Shown: one piece after another, positions 7,306-60,804 of the stretch
Position numbering within the stretch: position 1 is the first letter of the stretch
How the letters are laid out: each line of letters opens with the position of its first letter
NCBI GenBank assembly: GCA_031386685.1
Contig: JANNCQ010000085.1
Location: forward strand, 8,241-72,240
DNA: 64,000 nucleotides
Source of the DNA: Candidatus Altimarinota bacterium
GTDB lineage: Bacteria; Patescibacteriota; Gracilibacteria; BD1-5; UBA2023
Direction of reading: 5' to 3'
The notes under the pieces: model-generated
The model's input: only the letters and a program-made list of their open reading frames with translations
Databases searched by the model: none
What the model was told of the DNA's origin: nothing
Program-made: the position numbers and the translations under genes

Positions 7306-7490
7306 GGGAGAGTAGGGGGAGAATTATAGAATATAGAGCAGAGAATGAAGCGTATGTGAGAATACCCAGTGCGTGAAAATCCGCAGAATTATACAAAAAA
7401 ATCTTGTTTATTCAAATCAGTGAGGTGAAAAAGAAGTGAATAGTATTGACGAATAATTAATAATCCCTCTAACTCTAGAGGGATTATTAA

Positions 7491-8819
7491 TTATTCGAAG
7501 AACTCATCTACGATTTTACGGTATGCGAGACGATTTTTGATATCTTCGTAGTAGGTATCACCTGGGACGAGCTTCGCTCGGAGACGCTCAACGACCTCAG
7601 CACTTCCATACGTAGAAATTATTTTTTCTACTTCCGTTTTTATTTCTTCATCTGTGGGTTCAGTGCCTTTTGTTTCTCGTATTTTTCGGAGAAGCAGCTC
7701 TGCCTTCAGTCTTCGCTCTGCTTCAGGTCTTACTACTTCATCTTTGTACATTTCTACAGATTTCTTCACATGATCGAGATATTGTTTCATATCATACCCT
7801 TGTTGTTCGAGATTGCTCGCATGTTCACGGTAGACTTGCTCGACTTCATTTGCGATAAGTTCTGGTCCAACTTCGAACACTGCTACCTCCATCATCTGCT
7901 TCATAAGCATATCTTCATCTTTGGCACGAGCTTCAGACTCTTTTTTATTCTTTAATTCTTCTTCTAGAATTATTTTCAGTCCTGCTAGATCAGTACGCTT
8001 TCCACGAAGTTTCTCGATGAAGTCTTCATCGAATAATGGAGTATGAGGCTTCTCAATTTTCTCTATATTTGCGATAAAGTGCACTTTTCGTCCCTTAAAG
8101 TCGTCTGAGTGGTAATCCTTCGGGAATGTGATATCAAATGCTACTTCTTCTCCCATTTTAGCTCCAATAAGTTTTTCTTCAAAACCTGGGATAAATGAAT
8201 TCGATCCGATCACGAGAGGGTAGTTTGGCACACGAGTTTCTGATATTGCTTCACCACCCTTCTTATCGTATCCTTGTGCAGAGATAGTAGCACGGTCTCC
8301 AGACTCAATACTGAGATTCGAAGTATCTGCTCCATCATCGCTATGATGTCCTGCTTCATGGAAGTGGGTGAATCTTTTTTTGATCTCTGCGAGTTCTAAT
8401 TCTACTTCTTCTTTTGTGACGGATATCAGAGTCTTTTTTATTCGGATTGTATCCATCTTCTTTTCATCGATCACTATCTCAGGGAATACCTCGACTTCGA
8501 GCGTGAGCTCGATCGGATCAGTACTTTTGACTTCGGTGATCTGACCAGGAGATACGGGGAGGATATTTTCTTTTTTGAGAATTTTTGGATAGATCTTCCC
8601 GATGATAGCATCGAGAGCCTGTTGCTCGATCATAGCCTCTCCATATTCACGGATGATGACATGATCAGGGATGTTCGATCCTTGTTTGAATCACTTCACT
8701 TTTCCTTTGCTTCGGATTGCTTCGAGGACATGTTTCTTCGCTTTTTCGAGTTCTACTACTGATTCTTTGATTTGGATAGAGAGGGTGTAGCTATTTTTAC
8801 GAGTGACGGTACTTTGCAT
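7491..8819 (-). CDS. tig: trigger factor
   Basis: ORF 7491..8633 extends upstream through one TGA to ATG 8819 (MQSTVTRKNSYTLSIQ...GKVKGFKQGSNIPDHVI). FKBP-type and C-terminal domains are recognisable. Confidence 0.9.
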
Positions 8820-25817: not shown

Positions 25818-27404
25818 ATGCAAATCAAAACCTTTTACATAAAAACCTTTGGCTGTCAGATGAACTATGCTGATAGTGAGAAGATCCATATGATCCTCAT
25901 GTCGGCAGGACTACGCAAGGTCATCGATCCAGTGAAGGCGGATATCGTCATCATGAATACGTGTAGTGTCCGACAGAAGGGAGAGGATCGAGTATTTGGG
26001 TTTATGAGGGAGATTAGTAGATACCATAAGGTTACCCCACTGTGAACGAGGGATAGCGATAAAAAGGGGGCTTCGGTATCTGGAAATGAGGAACAAAAAC
26101 CCTCCGTCATTTCGTGACACCTACATTGACAGGGAGGTTCAGGACCACTCTTTGGTATCACGGGTTGTATGGTGCGGAAATCAGGAGTAGCAAGACGCTA
26201 TATCGATCTCGAGCAGTATAAGCGTCATGGAACAGAGAAGATAGTTTTGCTCGAGTCACATGACTCTCTTCTTAATTATGATGATGAACTTTTCTTACGT
26301 TCTCCACTCATCGACTTCACTTTCCGTATCGAGGAAGTCGCCTATGCCACGAAGATACTCTCTCTCATATCTGGCGAAGATATCGGGAATGATGCGAAGT
26401 TCCATGAATACCTCAGTGTGAAGCAACTCCAAGAGAATCCTGCAAGTGCGAATATCATCATCCAGACAGGATGTGATAACTACTGTACTTTCTGTATCGT
26501 CCCACATACACGGGGGAGAGAAGTGAGTCGTCCACAGGATGAGATTGTGAGGGAAATTGAGAATGTTGTAGCACAATGAACCAAAGAAGTGACTCTCCTC
26601 GGGCAAAACGTGAATAGTTATGGGAAAGAAACTCGAGCAAAACTGTGGATTCCTGAAGAACTAACCTGGTCTTCCAGAGACGTCAAAACCCCATTCCGTG
26701 ATTTACTCGAACAGATTAACCAAGTTGATTGACTCGATCGTATACGCTTCACGAGCTCGAATCCCCATGATATGACGAAGGATATCCTCGATGCTCACTT
26801 CGATCTCCCGAGCCTCTGTCCGTATCTTCACTTCGCACTGCAGTCAGGAAGTGATACTCTCCTCAAACGCATGAATCGGAAGCATACTTATACTGACTTC
26901 AAATCCCAAGTCGACTATCTCCGCGCTCGTGATCCACTCTTCTCAATCTCGACTGATATCATCGTCGGATTCCCGTGAGAGACTGAGGAGGAGTTCCAGG
27001 CGACAGCCAGAGCCATGCGCGAGTGTCAGTTCGATTATGCATTCATCGCACGCTACTCTCCACGCTCAGGAACGATCGCTACGATGAAATACGAGGATGA
27101 TATATCTGCTGAAGAGAAAGCTCGTCGGTGGACGATCCTGAATGATATCCTACGCGTGACCGCGAGGGATCGAAATCTCCTCATGGTCGGTCGAGAAGAA
27201 GAGATCCTCATATCTGGCGAATGAAAAGATGAGACATGGGTGGGACGAACTCGCAACTTCAAGGAAGTGTTCATCCCGAAATCCCCCTTTGTAAAGGGGG
27301 CTGGCGATAGTCAGGGGGATTTTGCTCCGATCAAAATCGGAGACCTCGTGAAAGTACGGATCACAGCAGGGGATAAATGGGTATTGAAAGGGGAGAGAGT
27401 ATAG
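25818..27404 (+). CDS. miaB: tRNA-i6A37 methylthiotransferase MiaB (radical SAM), with apparent internal insertions
   Basis: [21 protein letters not shown]...[10 protein letters not shown]...[23 protein letters not shown]...RFTSSNPHD...[17 protein letters not shown]. Four track fragments are in one frame. Stop TAG at 27402-27404. Confidence 0.9.
26099..26138 (+). repeat. palindromic repeat fragment (S-family-like) inside miaB
   Basis: ccctccgtcatttcgtgac...tgacagggagg. It shares the ccgtcatttcg core with the S copies at 45760 and 49530, and lies in a stretch of about 35 extra residues of MiaB. Confidence 0.5.
27279..27323 (+). repeat. GC-rich nested palindrome inside the miaB TRAM region
   Basis: aaatccccc (27279-27287) pairs with gggggattt (27314-27322). 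Inner perfect palindrome ccccctttgtaaaggggg (27283-27300). 45 nt = 15 codons. Confidence 0.6.
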
Positions 27405-35737: not shown

Positions 35738-35799
35738 GGAAATAGTCATCAGGAAGCAGATATCAGGTATCAGATTGGAATTATTTTCACTTTTCTGTT

Positions 35800-35822
35800 A
35801 TCCGCCACCGCGGATATTTTTA
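35800..35822 (+). terminator. rho-independent terminator after ppiB
   Basis: atccgc-cacc-gcggat followed by attttt. A second hairpin attccgta-cttat-tacggaat lies at 35831-35851. Confidence 0.6.
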
Positions 35823-35862
35823 TCCATTTCATTCCGTACTTATTACGGAATCTTTATTTGCT

Positions 35863-35890
35863 TGTCATTCTGAGTGAAGCGAAGAATCTG
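35863..35890 (+). repeat. truncated S-family repeat copy
   Basis: tgtcattctgagtgaagcgaagaatctg resembles the 5' half of the S elements (ctgtcatttcgag...gcgaga.atc). Confidence 0.45.
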
Positions 35891-35961
35891 CTTTTTTTGT
35901 CTATCATCTCGTGCTAGTTAGGGAATCTTCCCCAAAAAGTACGAATCAACAAAAAATAAAT

Positions 35962-38275: not shown

Positions 38276-39997
38276 ATGAAAAAAGAAATCTCTCAAAAAC
38301 AAGAAATTCGAGGAAGTGAAGATTTTTCGCAATGAATTTACTGATCTGTAAATGAGTGAGAAAAATCTAATACTGCCGAAGAAGCTCGCGGTTTTTCAGT
38401 GATTTCTAAAGCTCAGTGGATTCTCTATGATCAGTGTAATATACAGTATATCGAAGAATGAGTGACCGATATTTTTTTCATACTCTTCACGGGAGTTCGC
38501 ATAGTATCTCCAGTAGGAGATCTCAGCTTCAATATCCGCAGTAAGATCGCCGAATACGCTATCGCAAAAGGGTTTCTCACTGAGTGTGAGAATCTAGGAT
38601 TTCGTACTCATTGGATAGAAGCTCAGAGTTACAAAGATGGTATACTAGAATTCGTAATAAAAACAGGAATCACTGATATCATATTGATGCGATCGAGTGA
38701 AGAGTATCTCGTAAAAAAGATCGAGAAATATATACTCCCATGAGTATCATTTCGAGTATTTCCGAATCGACAGTTTCTCATAGATCCTGAGGAGTTCCGA
38801 GAGAGATTCGAGAAGCCTCCGATCATGGAGACATTTTACCGGTATATGCGAAAAAGTCGTGACATCCTCATGGAAGATGATGGGAAGCCCGTATGAGGAA
38901 AGTGGAACTATGATAGTGAGAATCGGTCGTTCGATAAGACTCATACTCCAAGTTGGAACTGGAAGGTGAGAGATACTCAGTATATCGATGAAGCCAAAAG
39001 ATACTATGGTGCTCAGGATATCGAATTCTCACTTCCTGTGACGCGGAGTGATTCTCTGTCGCTCCTTCAGTACTTCCTCGAATATCACTATCACGACTTC
39101 GGACGCCTCGAAGATGCGATGTATCAGGATGATATGCGAGTCCACCACTCGATGATTTCGACAGCGATGAATTTCTGACTCATTACTCCTCTCGAAGTCA
39201 TCCAGTCCGCACTTGGGTATCATGCACCCCTTTCGAGTGTCGAGGGGTTCATCCGGCAGATCCTCGGCTGGCGTGAGTATATGAGGCAGTACTATCTCTT
39301 CTACTATGATGATATCTATATGCAGAATGCACTCGATCATCACGATAAGCTTCCGAAGGAGTGGTGGAGCTATGATGGATGATGAGGAAAAGCCCAAAAA
39401 TCACAAGAGTGAGTGATTTCTCAAAAACAAGAAATTCGAGAAAGTGAAGATTTTTCGAAGAGAGTTTACGACCATCTAAATGAGCAAGAAAAATCTGATA
39501 ATGACGATGAAGTTCGTAGCTTTTCAAAAATCACAATGATGAATTGTGTGGATACTGTACTGGGTAGAGTACAATCCGAGAATTATTCGCATCATATCGA
39601 ACGACTCATGATCATCGGGAACTATACACTCCTTAGAGGATATCATCCACATGAGGTGAATCGGTGGTTCTGGGAGATGTATAGTGATGCATTCGAGTGG
39701 GTCGTATCTCCGAATGTCCTCGCTATGAGTCAGTATAGTGACGGAGGGAGACTCGCGACGAAGCCATATATCTCAGGCGGGACCTATATCGAGAAGATGA
39801 GTGACTACTGTAAGGTATGTCAGTATAGTGTGAAGGAGAAGACTTGCCCTATGACCCATCTCTACTGGGATTTTGTCGATCGTAATCAGTCACTCTTCGA
39901 GAAATGACGGACTCCCTATGTCCTCTCTACCCTTGCGAAAGTCGATATCGAGAAGATCCGACTTGCGAAAGAAATATTCATCCATAAAACCCTCTAA
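38276..39997 (+). CDS. FeS-BCP-type cryptochrome/(6-4) photolyase-like protein (COG3046 family)
   Basis: ...PIMETFYRYMRK...GKWNYDSENR...EGFIRQILGWREYMR...YSHHIERLMIIGNY...WFWEMYSDAFEWVVSPNVLAMSQYSDGGRLATKPYISGGTYIEKMSDYCKVCQY...CPMTHLYWDF (four Cys for an Fe-S cluster). Four fragments are in one frame. The true start may lie downstream of the R1 repeat, around 38400. Confidence 0.85.
38285..38406 (+). mobile_element. R-family MITE-like repeat, copy R1
   Basis: About 75 percent identical to 39413..39534. Terminal inverted repeats agaaatctctcaaaaac / gtttttcagtgatttct. Confidence 0.65.
39413..39534 (+). mobile_element. R-family MITE-like repeat, copy R2, in frame inside the FeS-BCP gene
   Basis: gtgatttctcaaaaacaagaaattcgagaaagtgaagatttttcg...cttttcaaaaatcac. 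Encodes VISQKQEIRESEDFSKRVYDHLNEQEKSDNDDEVRSFSKI. An 11-nt direct repeat caaaaatcaca occurs at 39395 and 39525. Confidence 0.65.
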
Positions 39998-42968: not shown

Positions 42969-44423
42969 ATGTATTTTTCCTATATACTCGCTTCCATGCT
43001 GAAGAAGATCCTCATCACCCTTGCTCTCCTTATTTGTATAGGTACTTTTGCAGTCTTCGGTTTTGCTATTTATACTGAGCGTCAAGAGTTCATAGAGCAT
43101 ATCTCACTGCTCTCATCGCAAGATCTTATCCATCAGACTGAGCTCACCACGCTGAAAGAGAAGGTCACTCTCCTCGAATCACAGTACGCCCAAGATGAGA
43201 AATATCTCACCTATTCAGGGACACTTCACTATATCCCTCTCGACTGACTCCTCGATACTACCGCTTCAGGATTTCTGATGGCAGATGCCTATGATGCTGT
43301 CAGGTTTCACAATACTTCGACAGAGCGTATCACTCTGGATATATACGATACACAAGATATAAGCACCTCTCCACTTTTCAGTCTTCAGATAGAGAGTGGT
43401 GCAATCAATTTTTTCTCACTGAAGAAGTCGGGGATGTATGCATATAAAACAGGCGCACAAAAATGAGTGATCATCATCGGGAAAGAATACTTAGATAAGT
43501 ACAATCTTGATTCCTTCCTAAAGAAAGAGATATTCCCGCTTTTTGATCCGAAGGATCAATCGTCTATCAAAAAAGCACTCCTTCACTTTAAGGAGATCAC
43601 GATGAATAATGTTCTCATCTCGAAAAACTGCCATAACCTTGCTCATGATATCGGACATGAGTCGTTCCAGAAATACGGGTTCTCTGTCGCGATCACGTGA
43701 TGACAAGATGATGTCTGTGCCTGATGATATACGCACTGAGTACTCGAATCGTATTTCGAGTCCGAGCCCAAGCTCGTAGAAAATCCAGAGTCTGCCTGTT
43801 CGACTATTGAAGGAAAGAAAAAAGGATCATGTTTTCACTGAGTCGGTCATGGACTTATGTTCATATCTGCTAATGATATCGCGGCTTCTCTCGAAGGCTG
43901 TCGTAAACTTTCTACTCCTGTTTGGAAGAATCGATGTGCTGAGTGAGTATTTATGGAGCTCTACTCCTGAGATCCGAAGCATGCATTTTGACAAATCAAA
44001 TACTCCACGGGAGACCTCTTTGTTCCTTGTATCACTTATGGAAGTGGAAGTGAGTGATATGTCTGTGGTTTCTATGCTGGACTCGGGTATATGAGATATG
44101 CAAGTGAAGACTATATAGGAGCACTCATCGCATGTGAAAAATGATGAGTATATACTCCTATGTGTATACGATGAGTCGGTCGTGAAATCGCTAAGAGATA
44201 CATCGGAGATGCTCTCAAGCTCGAAAGTATCTGCTCGAATCTTTCAGATCAAGTTGCAAAAATAAACTGTATAAATTGAGGGGTCAGCTATACGAAACTT
44301 CAGTTCGAAGATGAAGCACATCTCATAGAAGGTTATTGTCGTGGATTCCAGTCATTTTCGGAGCTTTGTACCGGAAAAAAGATAGACGAAACGACTCTAG
44401 AATCATCAGGATCATTACTCTAA
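42969..44423 (+). CDS. membrane-anchored hypothetical protein with repeated Cys-x-x-Gly/His motifs
   Basis: Fragments 42969.., 43278.., 43467.. are in one frame and continue to TAA at 44421-44423 (485 codons). N-terminal TM helix. Repeats CHNLAHDIGHE, CFHGVGHGLM, CAEGVFME, CGFYAGLGY, CIRGVGREI, CINGGVSY. Confidence 0.6.
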
Positions 44424-44430
44424 AACACTT

Positions 44431-45756
44431 ATGGCAAAACTCCAAAATCGTAGCCTCTTCATCTTCCGTCAGGATCTTCGTACTCATGATAATACTGCGC
44501 TCATCGAAGCGATGAGAAATTCTAAAGAAGTATTTCCAATTTTTATCCATGATACTCGTGCGATAGAGGACTTCGGTATGGATGATCCTCGATTTGGCTT
44601 CATCCGAGAAGCACTTGAGTCGATCGATACTGAGCTTCAGAAAGTATGATGAAGACTGACCGTATACCGAGGAAATCCAGATGATATCGTATGAGAGATT
44701 ATAGAAAAATATCAGATTAATGCGATCTATCTGAATCGGTCATATTCTCCAAGAGGGAAGGAGCGAGATGAGGGTATTATGAATCTTTGTGACTCGAGTT
44801 GAGTCAGTTTTCATTCATTTCAAGACTTTCTCATGGTAGAGCCAGAGGAGTGTGAACAACGTAAGGTATTCACCCCATATTCGATGCTCTGGAAGAAATT
44901 TATCATAGCGCATCCTGAGAGAATTGAGATTCATGCATTCGATGGAACTCTCGCAAAATGGTATATTCCAAATGATCGACGAGAAATCGGAGATACCATC
45001 ACAGTACCACATCATCCACTCTGGACGATGCAGTTCGGTCATGAGCGCTTAGAGAGAGACTTTTCTCACTATGTTGATCTTCGCAATCTTCCAGCTATCG
45101 ATGGTTCTACACGACTCTCTCCGTATATCCGATTTGGGATATTCTCGGTACGTGAGATATATGAGAAAGTGAGAGAAAATCCGACACTCCTCTCTGAGAT
45201 TATTTGGCGAGAGTTTTGGTATCAGATAGCGTATTATTTTCCATTCACCTACTCTCTCGAATTCCAGGAACGTCGTCGGACGATCGAGTGGGATAGAGAT
45301 GAGTCGAGCTATGAGTGGGAGATGTTCCAAAAATGAAAAACGTGATATCCTCTCGTCGATGCTGCAATACGTCAACTTATACAGACCAATTGGATGCACA
45401 ATCGACTCCGTATGGTGGTAGCCTCATTCCTCACGAAGAACCTCGGGGTCGACTGGCGAATGGGAGAGAAATGGTTCCGGAAATATCTCATCGACTATGA
45501 TGAAGCAGTGAACTTCGGGAACTGGCAGTGGAGTGCAAGTGTGGGGGCTGATCCGAAGCCTGTGAGAATCTTCAATCCGCTCCTCCAATCAGAAAGATTC
45601 GATACAGAATGTAAATTCATCAAAAAATACCTTCCAGAACTAGAAGGTATTGATCCAAAAAGAATTCATACTCTTGATCTGAAGGGAGTCTATAACGCTC
45701 CAGTGGTCGATCAGAAAGAGAGTGCTGCGAAGGCGAGAGAGAGATATAGGGGATAG
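44431..45756 (+). CDS. phr: deoxyribodipyrimidine photolyase (class I CPD / DASH-like)
   Basis: LFIFRQDLRTHDNTAL...STRLSPYIRFGIFSVREI...WREFWYQ...[36 protein letters not shown]...NFGNWQWSAS...RIFNP. Three fragments in one frame. Stop TAG at 45754-45756. Confidence 0.9.
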
Positions 45757-45759
45757 TCT

Positions 45760-45837
45760 CTGTCATTTCGAGCTTGCGAGAAATCATGCCCATTTCGGGT
45801 CCATCAGAGTAGGATGTCTCCTTCGTCGACATGACGG
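45760..45837. mobile_element. S-family palindromic (MITE-like) element, intergenic copy
   Basis: ctgtcatttcgag...aggatgtctccttcgtcgacatgacgg. The termini are imperfect inverted repeats. Sits between the convergent phr and tfoX stops. Confidence 0.65.
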
Positions 45838-45848
45838 GGAGGGTGTGA

Positions 45849-46178
45849 TTAATACTTTCTCTTCTTCGTTTTCGATGGAGTCTTCTTTTCTATCGTCTCT
45901 CTCGCAACTCGCAGAAGCATATCTCGATCACCTTCGAGCCATTCAGGATTTACGGCTGCTGTATTCTTGCTTCAAGGGTAAGCCCTAGTTTCTCTATCTT
46001 CGAAATATTCGATCGTCTCAGGGAAAGTCTTGAAAAACAGCGTATTATCGCAGACGAGGGCAAACATTCGATCTCCCGAGTATATCCCATATTCTCCAAA
46101 CATCGCTTTTGTATGAAGATATTGTATTCATTCAAGGCATTCGAGGAAGTACATGAGAGTATCTTTAGAGGTTGCCAT
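45849..46178 (-). CDS. TfoX N-terminal domain protein
   Basis: MATSKDTLMYFLECLEG...KAMFGEYGIYSGDRMFALVCDNTLFFK...AYPGSKN... 110 codons. Confidence 0.7.
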
Positions 46179-46587
46179 GATTTTTCTGATTATAGTGTTT
46201 GAGGAATTCTTGAATATTTGGATATGTTTTTAACTTTTTTGCTTCTTCAAGAGTAAAAAATCCTATCTCCATACATTCTTCAGAAGAAGTAAATTCGAAA
46301 TCATTTACTCTTGTTTCATAGAGCACATTTGCGATATTCCATCACTTCAGATTCGTACTTGTATAAAAATAACTTGGTACTTGAGAGATAGAAACGACTT
46401 CAAGTCACATTTCTTCCTTGATTTCACGTTTGAGACATTCTTGAAGATTTTCACCATAGTCCACTCATCCTCCAGGAAGTTCCCAGAGTTCATTCTCTTC
46501 TTTCACCAAGAGAAAGCTTCACTCATCATTATGAATAAGTGCTTTTACAGAGAGCCGATAGAAACAAGGTGGGATAGTATACTCCAT
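46165..46587 (-). CDS. Nudix hydrolase
   Basis: Nudix box GGGVDYGENLQECLKREIKEEMGLEV. 141 codons. The stop overlaps the tfoX start. Confidence 0.75.
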
Positions 46588-46599
46588 ATAAAAGAATTT

Positions 46600-46971
46600 C
46601 TATATGATCTTGCATGGTATGATGGCATCTTCATCGAATTGGTAGACGGCACAGAGTCTATGATATCCGTCAGCAATGACGACTTTCCCATTCACTTTAT
46701 CTCGTACGAGGAGAATTGGATCGAGTGGAGTACCTTTTTTGATTTTTTCTTTATCTCGTTTTATATGTCAGTTGCTTACTCAGAGAAGCGAGAGTCCTGA
46801 AGAGCGAAATATATCTTTCGCTTTATATTCTGTTTTTGGTACTTCACGGAGGTTCTTCACCATCTCATTTACTACTTTTTCCTCATATATTAGGGAAAGA
46901 TATGACCATGCTGCAGGATAGTCATGATCTGCAGGAAGTTCATTCCAGAGGATTTTCGTTTCTTTTTTCAT
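46600..46971 (-). CDS. ParB-like nuclease (ParB/sulfiredoxin fold) domain protein
   Basis: ...TPLDPILLVRDKVNGKVVIADGYHRLCAVY... ORF 46780..46971 reads through TGA to TAG at 46600-46602. Confidence 0.55.
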
Positions 46972-46993
46972 ATAACTATAAGATTACTATTTC

Positions 46994-48790
46994 TTAGTAT
47001 AGTATATTTTCTGTATTATCAAGATCTTTTTCTTCTACATCCTCTTCGATAAATCCGTCATGTTGGAGTTCGATGAGGTGACGGTATTTCTCACTCGACT
47101 GTATGAGCTCACTATGAGATCCACTCGCGATAACTTCACCACCCTCAAGCATATATATACGGTCGACATGCTGGATCGTCGAGAGACGATGAGCGATGAT
47201 GATGCTCGTACGACCTTCCATGAGCTTCTCGAGTGAGTCTTGGATGAGTCTCTCCGTCTCGGTATCGAGTGCACTCGTCGCTTCATCGAGGATGAGGATC
47301 TCAGGATCTGCGAGGATTGCTCGAGCTATAGCGATACGCTGTTTCTCTCCTCCAGAGAGCTTCAGTCCACGTTCACCGACCTCAGTATCCCAGCCACTTG
47401 GAAGTGAATCGATAAATTCGAGGATATTTGCGTCTTTAGCAGCTTTTCGTAGCTCTTTCTCGGTAATGCCATCTCTCACATATTCGAGATTATGTCTGAT
47501 CGATTCATTAAATAGTGTGGTATCCTGGAAGACACTGGCGAATCTCTGCCTATAACTTTCGAGAGTGAGACTTTCGATATTTTTTCCATCGATTTTTATA
47601 CTTCCATGAGTATATTCATAGAATCGCATAAGGAGTTGCACGATGGTCGATTTACCACTCCCTGTATGTCCGATCAGTGCTATCTTTTCTCATTTTTTCA
47701 CTTCGATATTCACTCATTTGAGTACTTCGCGAGTCGTCGATGGATAGATGAATCATACATTCTCGAATGTGAGAGATTTTTTGATTCCCTTGAATTCATC
47801 TGTTCCATTATCTGATTCCGGTTTCATCCTATAAAGAGCTTGAATTTTTTCATATCCAGCAATATGAACCATCATTTCTTGAGTGCCTCGAAATATTTCG
47901 AATATAGGTCAGTATATTTTTTCAGTAAAACTAATAAAAAAGAAGAGAGTACCTATATTGATCGTATCTTGAAGTAACAGGAATAATCCTCAAGTTATTG
48001 TTATTGCTTGAGATAAACTTATAATAAATCAGTCTACCCCATGAAAAATTACCCAGAGTTTTCGAATGTTATACTGTGCATCTTGAGCTTTTTTGAATCT
48101 TCATTCCAGTACCTTAGCTTCGTGGCTTTCTCTAGAAAATATCCGAACCACCTTCAAATTACTAAAGGAGTCACCTATCCTATTCCATAGACTATCCCAA
48201 TAATTATTTGCCACTCTTTGGTTCGTATACGCACTATTCCCAATTTTATATATTATGAGAAATGCAAAGGGAAGTAGTCAAAGTGAAATAAGAGTCATTT
48301 CCACATTTATGAATAAGCCTGAAATGATTAGTATAATAGCAACAGCAAATCTTGGTATAATCCATAACAGTACCTTATCTCCTATATCCCAAACGGCTTC
48401 TCAAGCTCGATCGAGAATCTTTTGTTTTTCGCCATGTTGAAGACTTATATGATAATCTATTGGAAGACGCATCATCATTCACATTGATTTGATGATAAAA
48501 TTAAACCAGTCTCTTTGCGTTCTTTCGAGAAGGTACATTCCATATATGTAACGTACTCATACTGTTGCTGAAATCATCAAAAACCATAAAAAAACTACGA
48601 GTATCAATCCATTATCTATTCCTCATACACTAGCTTTATTCTCTAGTGAGTCTACTAGGTACTTATAAAAGTATGGACTAGAAGCAAGAAGTCCTATATA
48701 AGTTATCATAAGAATACTTATTCAAATCCAGGCTCTTTTAACAAGGATAAGGTTTGAAACTATATTTTTTAGAGTTGAAAATCTTGTCAT
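46994..48790 (-). CDS. ABC transporter, fused permease/ATP-binding (MsbA-like exporter)
   Basis: Six-TM N-terminal half. Walker A GHTGSGKST, signature LSGGEKQRIAIARA, Walker B ILILDEATSALD. 599 codons. Stop TAA at 46994-46996. Confidence 0.9.
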
Positions 48791-49920
48791 AGTTTTTTGA
48801 TTATTTCAGGGAGTTGTTTGAGGTTTTTTTGTTCGAGGAGGATATCTCCATTTTTTTCATATTCTTTCGCATTCCAGAATTGGTGATTGTGGGCAGAGTA
48901 GGGAAGAGGGATGATGATTTTTCTTATGCTAAATGTATCGATCTCAGCAAGAGTCGTAGCACTTCCTCTTGTGATAGCGATATCTGTAGTTCTTAGTAGT
49001 GATACGATATCTTCTTGAGAGATCCAAGCGAGAGCTTGGACATTATCTATTTCTTTAAAATCATATTTCATTGATTCATTGAGCTTCCCAAGAGAGATAA
49101 TCCACTCATATTCACTATTTCAGTGGAACTCTTGGATGATTACTTCGAAAACCGATTTTGCTCACTGACTTCCACATATTACGAGGATATGGGGTTTATT
49201 GGTGCTCCATGTTACTCATCATTTTTCACCCTTATTACGAGTTATTGGAGAGAGCATTTTTCCGTCAAATACTCTTGAGAGTATCTGTCATACTACTTCG
49301 CACTTTTTTGGATTGAAATATTTTTTTGCACCTTCAAACCCGAGAAATATGATTCGAGCAAATTTAGAGAGGATTCTATTGGATCTTCCAGGAATAGTAT
49401 CGGACTCATGAATATAGAGAGGGATTCCGAGAGACCATCCTGCTATACCGACAGCGACGGATCAAGGTCATCACTTCGAGAAGATACACACTTCACCCCG
49501 ACCCTCTCCTCAAGGAGAGTGCGATTGTTTCTGTCATTTCGAGTGGAGCGAGATAGCTAGTACACCACTTGTGGGTGAATCTTGCTTAGTACTTTTAAGC
49601 AGGATGTCTCCTCTCGTCGACATGACGGAATAGAGAATTCTCCTTGCTTCGAATATTCATGCTATGAGCACAAGCGGATAGAGAAATATTTCTGGAGAAT
49701 TCGTTGTCCTCAGTTTCAGTGTAGGAATTGACTTAAACGGGATATTCTTTTTTTTTGCTTCAAATTCCTCATTGGAGTCCTTTCCTCATATCCAGAGAAG
49801 TTCCTTATCTCGGAGATCTTCTGTGAGTGAAAGAATCGGCTGTATGTGGCCGCCAGTACCTCATCCGACGAGGATGATTTTCTTATATTTCGAGAGTGTT
49901 TCAGTGAGTTTAGGATGCAT
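48769..49920 (-). CDS. murG: UDP-N-acetylglucosamine:LPS/lipid-I N-acetylglucosamine transferase MurG, carrying an in-frame repeat insertion
   Basis: MHPKLTETLSKYKKIILVGGGTGGHIQPILS...GGPGSVAVGIAGWSLGIPLYIHESDTIPGRSNR...ICGSQGAKS...ITRGSATTLAEI... 384 codons. Reads through TGA at 48787 to TAA at 48769-48771. Confidence 0.85.
49530..49627. mobile_element. S-family palindromic (MITE-like) element, in frame inside murG
   Basis: ctgtcatttcgagtggagcgaga...aggatgtctcctctcgtcgacatgacgg. Same termini as 45760..45837. Adjacent hairpin ctctcc-tcaa-ggagag at 49503-49518. Confidence 0.65.
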
Positions 49921-50477
49921 TAGAGAAGATATTTTTGAGATTTGATTATTGCGATGACACTGGCTCAGTGAGAGATTTTGGAATCCAGAGCAAGTTTTAG
50001 GGCTTCATCGTATGGGAGAGTTCATATATTGAGTATTTCTCACTCATCGGGTTTTGCTAGAGTTGTCTGCAGTCCTCTAGCTAGGAATATATAGTTCCTT
50101 GATTTTATAACGGAAGTGAATGGATCTATATATCAGAGATCGATCCACTCTTTTGCTCTATATCCTGTTTCTTCCTCGAGTTCTCTTTTTGCACAATCCA
50201 GAGGATTCTCGCCATCATCCATGCCGCCACTTACTACTTCGAGCGAATAATCATCAATAGCATAGGCAAATTCATTGGTAGTGATGATATTATTTTCTTT
50301 ATCTACAGCTATGACAGTCACACCATCTTTCATATCAATGATACCGAAAATTCCCTCTTTCCCTCCAGGTCGAATCACAGAATCTTCACGGACTGATATC
50401 CATGGATTTTCGTAGACTTTTTTTGTCGATATGAGTGTGAAGGGATTGATCATATAGAGGAAATAATATTCCTGCAT
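49920..50477 (-). CDS. Nudix hydrolase (ADP-ribose pyrophosphatase-like)
   Basis: ...VVSGGMDDGENPLDCAKRELEEETGY... Reads through TGA at 50133. The stop TAA overlaps the murG ATG (TAATG). Confidence 0.8.
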
Positions 50478-50498
50478 ACGCAGAAATGATGAGCCACA

Positions 50499-50975
50499 CT
50501 ATTCTTCGACTTCATCTTCACCGACGATTTTCTCGAGCATGTCGATGATGAAGTCATAGGTCTCGATATTGGGCTTCATGGAGAGGATATCATCGACTTC
50601 GAACCATCTGTAGTCATGGATCTCTTCTTTTTGAATCGTTTTTATCATATCTGACGTTTCCATAAGGAATACATATTCCGTACGGGATTTATCATGTCCT
50701 TCTTTATCGGTATAAGTGAGATCATAGATAGCGATAGGAAGGGGATGATGGATGAGCTTCTTCCCTCTATGGTGGAGGATTTCTTCACGATCGATCTCGA
50801 AAAACTTCGCCTGAAGTCCGAATTCTTCTCCTATCTCACGTATCATCGCATCGTGGAGTGATTCTCCAGATTCTACATGACCACCTGGGAGTACCCAGGA
50901 AGTATCGGGCTTATGCTGGGTGAGGAGGATCTGACCTTCAGGATTGAAGAGGAATGCGCGAACAACTTGTTTCAT
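50499..50975 (-). CDS. Nudix hydrolase
   Basis: ...WVLPGGHVESGESLHDAMIREIGEEFGL... Intact in the standard code. Stop TAG. Confidence 0.85.
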   Translation of the reverse strand: MKQVVRAFLFNPEGQILLTQHKPDTSWVLPGGHVESGESLHDAMIREIGEEFGLQAKFFEIDREEILHHRGKKLIHHPLPIAIYDLTYTDKEGHDKSRTEYVFLMETSDMIKTIQKEEIHDYRWFEVDDILSMKPNIETYDFIIDMLEKIVGEDEVEE

Positions 50976-51165
50976 AAAAATGGGAGGCTAGAAAGTATAC
51001 TTTATAATACACATATTTTTCTGAGTTCAAAATTAGAGAGTATTCACTCTATGAAAAATCTCTAGAGTGAGCCATTCTTCTATCTTTTTTGAGAAGCTTT
51101 ATAGCAGATTCTCGAGGGTTTATTGTTTTTTTTGATGGACTCAGGTGTATAGTCCCATAAAAAAA

Positions 51166-52978: not shown

Positions 52979-55627
52979 TTATGGAAGCTGATAGAATCCT
53001 CATCGGGAATACACGGTTCCAAGGTCCCTTGAGAGTATAGCCGGAAAAAGTATATCACACTCTTTTATAAGTGCTCAAAATGATATCTTATTTGCACAAG
53101 GACATTGTTCGCATATAGGTGTTGCTATTATGAGTCATTGAGTTTTTGCTTTTTCGAGTATACAGGCATTATTTTCGAGCCTTCCGAGAATTCCTATAAT
53201 CGTAGGACATCCATTGTCTTTTATTGTGCCTGATACAGTAGGACAAAGATCGTTCGCATCAGCTATCCCATCGCCGTCAGTATCTTTTGTCGCGATCCTC
53301 ACCGTCATACTTGACTCTGCTTTCTGTCCTTTGGCATCAGTCACAGATACTACTACAGTATATGTCCCTGGAGTATTAAATATATGAGAAGGAGATGATC
53401 CCCCTATGCTTGTAGGTGTTCCATCTCAGAAGTTCCAGCTATACGAGAGTGGTCACACTCAGAGAGCATAGCTCGAAAAATCTATACTTCCTCCTGCTCC
53501 TATGCTCAGAGTACTTGCTCCTATAGTTACTGAAGGAGGAAGAGTCCCTCCTATACCAATACCTCATCATCCACCTCCACCTGCTCCACCTCCACCACTA
53601 CTTCCACCTCCACCACTACTTCCTCCTCAACCAGATACTCATCCGCCATTTCCACCACCAGAACTCCCACCCCCTCCACCTGTTCCTCCCCCACCACTAC
53701 TTCCTCCTCCTGTACCTCATCCACTTCCATTCCCATTTCCTCCGACAGGAGGATTCCCCGCAAGAGTACTTCCATCTCAGATAGAGATCGTCGTAGAAGG
53801 ATGACTGAGGATAGTTCCACTTACTCGGTCTCGTATGAGAAGATCGACATTCCAGTTTCCTACTCCGAGGCTTCCTGATGGAAGTGTCCCCCCATTTCCA
53901 CTTATGACCCTTCCAGTCACGCTATCTACTGCAGTCCATGTATAAGTATAGTCTCCGGGATCTGAAGTACGAGGAGTGAGATTAAAACTCTGTCCACTAC
54001 TAAAACTACTTCATGGGAGTACTTTTCAGTCGGAACCTATGACTTGTATAGTACTTCAGAGAGTAGCAGTATTTCATCCAGTATTACCAGTATTTCCTCA
54101 TCAGATTATTCCAGGAAGTCCAGGATTTGTATTTATTCCAGGTTCGATTCATTTTGTATAATTATTGATATTGATTACTGGACATCACTTATTAGTCGAA
54201 GATCCAGAAATATTGGGACAGAGGTCATCTTTGTCCGTGACGCCATCGCCATCACTATCCTTATCTCCTGTCACTTCGATGATCACTTTTGTTTGTACGG
54301 TTTGACCATCTTTGTCTATGAGAGTCACACTTACTGTATATATCCCTGGAGTAGTATAGGAGTGACTTTTATCAGTTATATCTTTCGTATTGTTTCATGT
54401 AAGGACAGATGACTGTCTGATCCCATCTCAAAAATCCCACATATACGTCAGAGGTCATGACCCGAGAGCAAAACTCGAAAAGTCTATCGACCCACCTACA
54501 CCGACACTAAGCTTATTGACAGAAAGCATGATGGATGGATAGATTTTTCCATCGATAGAGCTATTTTTTTTATCACCACCATTACCTATAGGATCTATAC
54601 TTCATCATAGGAGTGACTTTCCATCAGTGATCAATATTGTCGTCGTCGGGGAGCTCACTCATCGATTGGTCGCTCTGTCAATGATATCGAGTTCTATACT
54701 CCAATCTCATGCTCAAAGTGTGCTCGATAATAGGCTCGGATCTGTCCCAGTGACGACTCGATTCGTCGCTCTATCTATAGCTGTCCACTCATATCGATAG
54801 TTACTTATTTCTGCGTCCATGAGCGGTACAATTCGAAATTTTTCTCCTAAAGCGAATACGCTCTTATTTATACGGTTTCCACTTTCTCAGAGAATGACGA
54901 GAGAGCTTGCGAGAGTATTTTCTATACCAGCTTTGGCACACTGATTATAATCAAACATTTTTGCCGCCATGATCACAAATTCTCCCCTCGTGATAGACTC
55001 ATCCGGGGCTATTGTATTATTTGCTTTCAATATGAGAATCCCTGCATTTATACCCTTTACAGCATATCCATACCAATAATCAGAGATATCATTTATAGTG
55101 ATGGTTTTTTTGAGTGTCTTATTGAGATCTTCATTCCAGAGATTTGCTTGACGAAGGAGCATCGCTGCTGCCTCCATACGTGTAGTCTTATTGTTTTGAC
55201 AGAAGGGAGTACTCTGGAATCTTCCTCCATCCTGACACGATACATTCCCGGTAGTATCGAGGGTATATCACTGCACGATCTTCTTATCGGCAGCATAGGC
55301 GATACAATAGTATACTGGATGAGTTTTACTCAGATCGACAAAAGGAGATATCGCATATGAAGCAATATCTCATGGAGTGGGAGTGATACATCGCCTACAG
55401 GATACACTTACAGAGAGTCCTACGAAGTCACCACGATCAATCGTATCTTCAGGTCGAAAAAGATGAGATCCGTCATCATAGAGTATATAGTTTTTATAGA
55501 GGGTTTCTATAGAAGAATAATATGGACTCGTCGTAGTGATATCAGTATAGGGGAGTGCTCCTGCAGAGACACTTCATCGTCCCAAAATAGAGAAAAAAAG
55601 AACGATGAAAAGGAGAAACTTTTTCAT
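52979..55627 (-). CDS. large secreted surface protein: signal peptide, two SLH-like repeats, PKD domains, thrombospondin-type-3-like Ca-binding repeats, Gly/Ser-rich linker
   Basis: An 883-codon frame was scanned codon by codon with no TAA/TAG. MKKFLLFIVLFFSILG...; ITRGEFVIMAAKMF; DKDSDGDGVTDKDDLCP and DTDGDGIADANDLCP; YSWNFGDGT (Gly = TGA at 53426-53428)...GTYTVVVSVTD. Confidence 0.8.
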
Positions 55628-60600: not shown

Positions 60601-60716
60601 AAAAATCTGAAAATGACGAATTTCATTGTCAGAAAAAAGTTCTCTCGATCAATTGTCTCTATCTAAGCGTACTTCGAGTCATTTTTTCTTCCTCGAACTA
60701 CTTGTTTTTGAGATTC
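60601..60716 (-). mobile_element. R-family MITE-like repeat, copy R3 (intergenic)
   Basis: Minus strand gaatctcaaaaacaagtagttcgaggaag...cattttcagattt matches the 5' 40 nt and the termini of R1/R2. The middle is divergent. Confidence 0.55.
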
Positions 60717-60804
60717 TTCTATTCTCATGTGAAAAATCCGTGAACCTATTTGGAGAAATCACTATTTTTCATATACTCTATAAGCATTTATAATTGAACA
60801 TCTT

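Follow-up and report, generated by a model that had tools for sequence, protein, structure and literature searches.

The murG locus and its in-frame insert

The DNA analysed here, a 64,000-nt stretch of contig JANNCQ010000085.1 (assembly GCA_031386685.1, Candidatus Altimarinota bacterium; hereafter the window), contains a murG gene, coding for a glycosyltransferase of family GT28, in which one loop is lengthened by palindromic repeats. The G+C content of the window is ∼40%. Open reading frames (ORFs) of at least 100 aa add up to 57,101 aa when read with translation table 25 and to 16,503 aa with table 11; the long ORFs need TGA as a sense codon, and the window therefore makes sense only in code 25. 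The homologues and syntenic contigs used for comparison are labelled Candidatus Gracilibacteria; loci of these relatives are given L-numbers below, and homologous proteins P-numbers. The murG ORF extends from 48769 to 50076 on the minus strand, with an ATG at 49920 as the likely start. Both GT28 domains (Pfam PF03033 and PF04101, detected on homologues), the glycine-rich loop and the MurG fold are present, and all invariant MurG motifs, as well as the reading frame, are kept outside the insert.

Two pieces make up the insert: a 98-nt pair of repetitive extragenic palindromic (REP) hairpins and a shorter GC-rich hairpin. The translation across them reads ...ARRILYS-VMSTRGDILLKSTKQDSPTSGVLAISLHSKGQKQSHSPGGEGRGE-VCIFSKGG..., exactly the peptide given in an initial annotation of this DNA, which had described a palindromic element lying in frame and free of TAA and TAG. 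Translation bears this out: neither TAA nor TAG occurs inside the insert, and TGA occurs in frame twice, at 49536 (..TCG AAA TGA CAG.., through the REP end) and at 49512 (CCT TGA GGA, through the GC-rich hairpin). Each inserted piece thus holds one codon that would be a stop in the standard code. The MurG of the window has 50 residues where relatives with an empty site have 9–10, so the net gain is ∼40 residues; the extra loop first described is real, while its estimated size, about 45 residues, was too large. The 98-nt unit, first placed at 49530–49627, and the GC-rich hairpin (CTCTCC-TCAA-GGAGAG), first placed at 49503–49518, each lie one base further on, at 49531–49628 and 49504–49519; the coordinates of a second copy of the unit, 45760–45837, needed no change.

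The murG insert is the product of two separate events, the insertion of the REP pair and that of an independent GC-rich hairpin repeat. The latter encodes ..SHSPGGEGRGE.. and is missing from the murG genes of L001 and L002, than which the window is ∼33 nt longer at this point. Relatives of this hairpin, with a GGGGTGA(A/G)G tail, were found in another MurG loop of L129 and, judging by position, in the arginyl-tRNA synthetase gene of L002. Perfect GC-rich hairpins do not form a large family in the window (four found, 0.9 expected). The hairpin noted initially as adjacent to the unit is present, but as a second insertion and not as part of that unit.

Hairpin architecture and distribution of the repeat

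The 98-nt unit consists of two CGTC/TGTC-tagged REP hairpins in inverted arrangement and is not a classical MITE (a miniature transposable element with inverted repeats). The CGTC superfamily of REPs was described by Di Nocera, De Gregorio and Rocco (2013, BMC Genomics 14:522; PMC3733652); its members have a CGTC or TGTC tag (CCTC being allowed), stems of 8–9 bp starting with A, T, loops of 4–5 nt and an unpaired 3-nt tail with the consensus CCA. They occur mostly as inverted dimers, often heterodimers, with outward tags and spacers of 20–100 bp (PMC3733652). In the window, each arm has a 4-nt tag, (C/T)GTC, followed by eight stem positions that start A-T, T-A and include tandem G.A/A.G at positions 6–7, with a 3–5-nt loop and a 3-nt tail. 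TGTC tags were located at 49532 and 45761, and CGTC tags at 49627 and 45836. The loops (GAGA, GAA, CTTG, TGGAG and TGAAG) agree with the published loop size, and the dimers have outward tags, spacers of ∼26 and ∼44 nt, and arms of two types (ATTTCGAG and ATGTCGAC).

The two arm types differ by a T/G change that is compensated within the arm: ATTTC pairs with GAAAT, and ATGTC with GACAT. Among the matches listed from other phyla (see below), compensation within the arm was seen in 86 of 121 exact-pattern matches, and compensation between arms in 7 of 121. Since the difference is compensated within arms, each arm is a hairpin of its own. When compared with shuffled sequences, the folding of the 98-nt copy gave z = −3.3 and that of the 78-nt intergenic copy z = −0.5; a single long hairpin was thus rejected as a description of the unit, as the 78-nt copy folds no better than its shuffles and fits two hairpins. 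A generic REP finder (tag, stem, loop, stem) returned four matches in the window versus 0.5 in shuffles, and both arm types passed. At related Gracilibacteria loci, the same finder detected REPs of textbook type with perfect stems (ATTCCTGC-GNAG-GCAGGAAT); perfect 8-bp stems (ATTCCTGC/GCAGGAAT) are present in L001, L002, L120 and L129. A search of Rfam with positions 44000–51000 of the window and with nine loci of other phyla gave no meaningful match at E ≤5. A self-splicing intron, an intein or a known RNA family was also considered for the insert and discarded, there being no Rfam match and 45 residues being too short for an intein.

The two copies of the pair in the window share CTGTCATTTCGAG exactly, together with AGGATGTCTCC(T/TC)TCGTCGACATGACGG, and were recovered by an nhmmer profile with E = 6e-22 and 2e-17; the number of matches to their 28-nt end pattern expected from shuffles was 0.00. 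The b-arm of the murG copy is intact, passes the REP finder, and is one indel away from the b-arm of the intergenic copy. The 45-nt block GAGATAGCTAGTACACCACTTGTGGGTGAATCTTGCTTAGTACTT is 84% identical to the copy in L129 (38/45, hand count). The intergenic copy begins 3 nt past the stop codon of a photolyase gene; its neighbours are taken to be this photolyase gene and a convergent TfoX-like gene. In all, the 64 kb contain two REP dimers and one or two single hairpins (Table 1).

Table 1. Coordinates of murG and of the repeat elements in the window
Feature	Position	Strand	Description
murG (GT28 glycosyltransferase)	48769–49920	−	383 aa in code 25, stop codon counted; from the translation
REP heterodimer in murG	49531–49628	+	Element strand antisense to the gene; encodes S-VMSTRGD...SLHSKGQ
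REP-a* arm of murG copy	49532–49556	+	Tag TGTC 49532–49535; stem half ATTTCGAG 49536–49543; loop TGGAG; inner half CGAGATAG 49549–49556
Spacer of murG copy, with small hairpins	49557–49600	+	Within the 45-nt block GAGATAGCTAGTACACCACTTGTGGGTGAATCTTGCTTAGTACTT (49550–49594)
REP-b arm of murG copy	49601–49627	−	CGTC 49627–49624; ATGTCGAC 49623–49616; loop GAGA; GGAGACAT 49611–49604; tail CCT
GC-rich hairpin repeat, second insertion (∼33 nt)	∼49492–49527	−	Stem CTCTCC/GGAGAG 49504–49519, then GGTCGGGGTGAAG in gene sense; boundaries approximate
Canonical intergenic REP heterodimer	45760–45837	+	TGTC, ATTTCGAG, CTTG, CGAGAAAT, CAT ... AGG, ATGTCTCC, TTC, GTCGACAT, GACG
Single REP hairpin, same superfamily	35863–35898	+	TGTC, ATTCTGAG, TGAAG, CGAAGAAT, CTG, then T-run (T7); intergenic, downstream of peptidyl-prolyl isomerase gene
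REP-like hairpin, degenerate tag	35829–35853		Downstream of peptidyl-prolyl isomerase gene
Window-specific in-frame insert in MiaB-like radical-SAM gene	26067–26150	+	Short palindrome CCGTCATTTCG...CATTGACAGG

The unit is not specific to the Candidate Phyla Radiation (CPR), the same design being found in many phyla. A scan of one genome per species with the pattern GTCATTTCGAG-N(50–80)-TCGACATGAC identified at least 116 loci, against a chance expectation of ∼8 (a rough estimate). The matches listed come from Verrucomicrobiota, Chloroflexota, Bacteroidota, Clostridia, Desulfobacterota, Nitrospirales and others, and from one Gracilibacteria contig; a few of them, the Rhizobium loci for instance, lie inside genes and match by chance. 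Their consensus is GTCATTTCGAG-CGnAG(T)-CGAGAAATCTC ... GAGATGTCTCG-ACTnCG-CTCGACATGAC, of which the intergenic copy of the window is a canonical member. Among these listed matches, GTC is preceded mostly by T or C (121 elements of other phyla), and the loops have a mode of 5–6 nt, with a longer tail due to nested inserts. In phyla using the standard code, long ORFs contain no more than 13 of 120 elements, a number that includes several chance matches. A scan of metagenomes with the window-specific REP-b pattern returned five loci, none of them Gracilibacteria-like. At one locus of the superfamily (L124, positions 2217–2475; JGI contig Ga0182009_10019849), REP heterodimers form a tandem array with a period of ∼116 nt.

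The single hairpins of the window lie behind the peptidyl-prolyl isomerase gene, where a terminator-like hairpin is also present at 35799–35816 (same region, 35799–35898); the REPs located there may double as terminators. The MiaB-like gene (25818–27404) contains, besides the insert of Table 1, a second in-frame hairpin insert at 27285–27323, with the hairpin CCCCCTTTGTAAAGGGGG; the L001 orthologue has neither. The palindrome of the first insert may be a collapsed REP pair, although this is uncertain.

Repeats of other kinds were also observed in the window. A 111-nt direct repeat (80% identity; 38288–38398 and 39416–39526) lies inside the ORF at 38276–39997 and encodes ..ISQKQEIR(G/E)SEDFS..; partial inverted copies of it were found at ∼60.7 kb (60672–60728). 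A perfect palindrome of 22+22 nt with a 4-nt loop (7450–7497), which may be a terminator, overlaps the stop just past the 3′ end of an apparent trigger-factor ORF. Finally, tandem repeats of 15/18 nt at 53552–53745 code for stretches rich in Gly and Ser in a surface protein; orthologues of this protein have SLH and PKD domains.

The murG site in related genomes and the origin of the insert

The 120 MurG homologues inspected are 329–466 aa long, and the loop that follows ARKIL, together with at least four others, accounts for much of the variation. Where the site is empty, the loop has 9–10 residues (e.g. QKQGDGFCV, RKYSKEDTCI or KKNRKNSCI). L001 and L002, which are syntenic with the window, carry a REP pair at the same murG junction (E = 1e-23 to 1e-24). 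The MurG of the window is 67–71% identical to the empty-site proteins P0002–P0005, P0010 and P0014, versus 61–63% to the filled P0007, P0008 and P0012, while its neighbouring genes are 72–89% identical to those of L120–L122, where the site is empty, versus 50–65% to those of L001/L002. By MurG and by neighbouring genes, the closest kin of the window are thus the empty-site L120–L122.

The occupants of the site differ among lineages, the peptides SVMSTE.., SVIA[NKTR].., SVISTEARY.. and SVIVKHE.. corresponding to different REP subtypes. In L129 (6949–7079), the subfamily found in the window occupies the identical IL-Y-S|V junction, inverted relative to murG; this orientation implies an independent insertion or a flip in place, and excludes the vertical inheritance of a static loop. 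In L128, the same loop of MurG (P0006; 8670–9833) contains an unrelated long imperfect palindrome, with a predicted RNA folding energy of ∼−52 kcal/mol, that encodes ..NGGSGVETVGVGG..SFSTPETFDTFGHKS..; similar peptides are present in P0044, P0046, P0080, P0092 and P0098. Since it has been colonised repeatedly in the Gracilibacteria, this loop is better regarded as a permissive hot spot than as the seat of a single inherited insertion. At least four further MurG loops in Gracilibacteria carry lineage-specific, repeat-like peptides (e.g. ..SFAKEVPEGRRI..ISPTPLYKEG.. and ..TPIPLLPLSQGG..). A comparison of filled and empty sites in six genomes revealed no direct repeats flanking the filled site.

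Units of this kind also lie in frame in unrelated housekeeping genes. Related units were found in a DUF1295 gene of L001 and in a UvrD/PcrA-like helicase gene of L032, and the cysteinyl-tRNA synthetase (CysRS) gene of L002 contains a textbook REP pair with CCA tails. The ABC ATPases P0122, P0123 and P0124 include the peptide SVMSTESS.PVTTTRHLA...QDFSL.S..LEMTE, near-identical to that of the L002 MurG insert; they were identified in a protein search with concatenated insert peptides, a search of low sensitivity that gave four matches. The possibility that murG is split at the insert in P0110–P0116 was examined and rejected: P0112 is an intact gene started late, and the others are explained by short contigs or late starts. 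For P0112 (L119, 9707–10774), the public call begins at an internal Met, and the full gene is intact in code 25. Close relatives have either an empty or a repeat-bearing loop, and more copies exist both in the window and in genes of related genomes. Neither of the two findings that the initial annotation had named as fatal to its reading was therefore made, and its core, a dispersed palindromic repeat forming an extra in-frame loop of MurG, is supported by these copies.

One ancient insertion, vertically inherited and lost in some lineages, would account for the 5′ junction (IL-x-S|V) being identical in all lineages and for the spacer hairpin CTTGCT...AGCAAG, common to the murG copies of the window, L001 and L002. 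Such a history is unlikely, given the patchy distribution of filled sites on the MurG tree, where the window groups with empty-site proteins, the presence of different REP subtypes at the site, and the opposite orientation of the element in L129. Further, the 3′ ends of the inserts lie in different frames (..SKGQ versus ..LEMT), and the b-arm of the window murG copy matches that of its own intergenic copy and lacks the 22-nt extra hairpin found in the murG copies of L001 and L002.

The position of the insert in the protein was analysed in an AlphaFold2 model of P0001 (the MurG of the window with TGA rendered as W), built with 42 homologues. The model (mean predicted local distance difference test (pLDDT) score 87, predicted TM-score 0.84) is confident and MurG-like outside the insert, and its best PDB matches are the MurG structures 7d1i, 1nlm, 1f0k and 3s2u. 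Values of pLDDT fell below 50 at residues 107–114 and 118–135, between a helix (76–105) and a strand (144–149). The model thus shows the insert as a loop of low confidence that joins a helix to a strand within the MurG N-domain, in agreement with the extra peptide loop envisaged at the outset. The site aligns to ..AIMKAYKPDVV.. of E. coli MurG, at residues ∼92–98 and just after R86–R89. Ha et al. are said to have proposed, in 2000, a membrane-association patch for E. coli MurG, and the helix before the insert site is presumably the one that carries it.

We consider it probable that the extra loop of MurG derives from two small insertions of selfish DNA, the REP pair and the GC-rich hairpin, kept in frame at a permissive hot spot. 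The units would spread by a route that leaves no target duplication, and most insertions into an essential gene would be lethal and subsequently lost. Three circumstances may have allowed this one to survive: it would fall in a surface loop, from a helix of the N-domain to the next strand, away from the catalytic cleft; its length preserves the reading frame; and, with TAA and TAG as the only stops, the TGA contributed by REP ends would be read as glycine. The ∼40 encoded residues, which are presumably translated and neutral, most likely form a disordered passenger loop with no function of its own. Colonisation of this loop would have recurred, involving different REP subtypes, inserted in either orientation, as well as other palindromic repeats.

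Several observations weigh against this proposal. The stems of the window have 6/8 Watson–Crick pairs, positions 6–7 being G.A/A.G, and the tails are CCT, CAT or CTG, versus the published CCA, which was seen in the CysRS pair of L002. The inner half of the a-arm in murG, CGAGATAG, has two mismatches to its stem (its GAGATAG core is common to L129) and pairs poorly, so this arm is not a clean hairpin. Copies of the repeat were counted in 64 kb of this genome only. An excess of genic copies in Gracilibacteria is suggestive only, 3/8 in an unbiased sample versus ≤13/120 in standard-code phyla being not significant (p = 0.06). Third-codon positions of L001 and L002 are identical at 29/41 sites in the insert and at 167/322 elsewhere (p = 0.03), a difference that suggests constraint on the DNA or RNA, or a more recent origin, rather than drift alone. 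Lastly, the repeated occupation of one loop could mean that the insert is useful.

The last two observations lead to the idea of a domesticated insert, the loop or the mRNA hairpins having been recruited for membrane association of MurG, for translation pausing or for mRNA stabilisation. The filling of the same loop in many Gracilibacteria lineages, the third-codon conservation, and the location of the site just after the residues corresponding to R86–R89 of E. coli would fit such a role. It is nonetheless a quite improbable one: the closest relatives manage with an empty loop of 9–10 residues, the peptides are entirely different between lineages, orientations and repeat families, the model shows no structure for the insert, and the units are shared with unrelated proteins and intergenic sites.

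A classical MITE, that is, a deleted insertion sequence with terminal inverted repeats, mobilised by a transposase in trans and producing target-site duplications, would explain the 13-nt imperfect inverted termini, the small size and the dispersed copies. It would not explain arms that are self-folding tagged hairpins, compensated within the arm in 86/121 of the matches listed and also occurring singly. No direct repeat was seen beside any copy, no obvious transposase was recognised among the ORF translations of the window (read by eye, with no domain search), and in PMC3733652 the CGTC family is described as having no dedicated transposase. The element is therefore very unlikely to be of this type; of the initial description as MITE-like, the palindromic nature and the inverted ends stand, and the terminal repeats are to be read as a REP hairpin pair. 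An assembly artefact or a dead murG can hardly be credited: repeats can be misassembled and there is one contig for this genome, but independent assemblies have an insert of this kind at the site, and the rest of murG keeps its invariant motifs and frame.

Genetic code and comparison with known repeats

The two insertions postulated above pass through TGA codons, and the genetic code affects how many frames such units leave open. Among the Gracilibacteria copies, 27/36 frames are free of stops in code 25 versus 13/36 in code 11 (p = 0.002); for the elements of other phyla, among the matches listed, the figures are 495/726 and 251/726 (p = 6e-38). Code 25 thus roughly doubles the number of open frames through these units. 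At the murG site of other homologues, ..S[KR]WQ is the end of most REP-type inserts, W probably representing TGA in table-4 calls. The change of code may help genes to accommodate REPs. A broader and rather doubtful conjecture is that the reading of TGA as glycine made the proteins of Gracilibacteria permissive to ancient, pan-bacterial REPs, the ends of which give rise to TGA in one of the frames. REP loops would then accumulate in essential proteins at a few hot spots, where they turn over and flip; strict conservation of ATTTCGAG/ATGTCGAG across >8 phyla would imply a conserved machinery that recognises them.

These data add recoded CPR bacteria to the hosts of protein-coding palindromes, previously Rickettsia and a few proteobacteria, and provide a concrete case in which the reassignment of a stop codon would widen the range of selfish DNA that a proteome can absorb. 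Repeat-driven variation of tens of residues in housekeeping proteins of Gracilibacteria affects alignments, phylogenies and gene calls, and the hairpin pair found across phyla offers a handle on what mobilises CGTC REPs. In the literature searched, no description of in-frame REPs in Gracilibacteria or other code-25 bacteria was found, in keeping with what the initial annotation had supposed for table-25 CPR bacteria; literal strings of the element appeared there in primers only.

The bacterial interspersed mosaic elements of E. coli resemble the unit in having two types of REP hairpin, inverted and separated by a spacer, typically after genes; their REPs, however, lie outside genes, bear a tag of the GTAG type and are associated with RAYT transposases. 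Bacterial MITEs such as Correia, ERIC and Nezha are likewise small, non-coding and dispersed, with inverted ends, and sometimes lie inside genes; the present unit differs in the absence of target-site duplications, in arms that are autonomous hairpins also found singly, and in that no parent insertion sequence was recognised in the window on reading the ORFs by eye.

The resemblance to Rickettsia palindromic elements (RPEs; Ogata et al. 2000, Science 290:347; 2002, Genome Res 12:808; both as cited in PMC10969869 and PMC3733652) is closer than was first proposed. In both cases, unrelated essential genes, cell-wall genes among them, contain palindromic repeats in frame, which encode extra peptides presumably compatible with the fold of the host protein; the housekeeping hosts here are MurG, DUF1295, UvrD/PcrA, CysRS and ABC ATPases. 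According to PMC3733652, RPE-4 and RPE-6 of Rickettsia conorii are CGTC-4 and CGTC-1, members of the superfamily to which the window unit was assigned, and the hosts of intragenic CGTC REPs in R. conorii include MurB, PBP1C and AmpG; the link is that paper's statement of superfamily. The host here is a free-living or epibiotic code-25 CPR bacterium and not an intracellular alphaproteobacterium, the frame passes through TGA, and one loop has received insertions repeatedly, in either orientation. Unlike the window unit, RPE-1-type elements encode a conserved peptide, and they are longer.

The closest match is with the CGTC REPs themselves, as described in PMC3733652: both have the tag, the eight-position stem starting with A, T, the short loop and the 3-nt tail, and both form inverted heterodimers with in-frame genic copies. 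The same paper places CGTC REPs downstream of genes, with many copies per genome and frequent in-frame intragenic copies in housekeeping genes, and reports neither a dedicated transposase nor a target duplication. The present units depart from it in their stems with tandem G.A/A.G and in tails (CTC, CCT or CAT) other than CCA; the assignment is to the superfamily, in which the paper distinguishes four families. Among the matches listed, the ATTTCGAG/ATGTCGAG pairing extends past the five phyla named in the paper, being present in Verrucomicrobiota, Chloroflexota, Clostridia, Nitrospirales and Gracilibacteria. In-frame insertion of REPs and RPEs is thus already known; what the murG locus adds is the recurrent and bidirectional use of one loop, together with a change of genetic code that plausibly enabled it.

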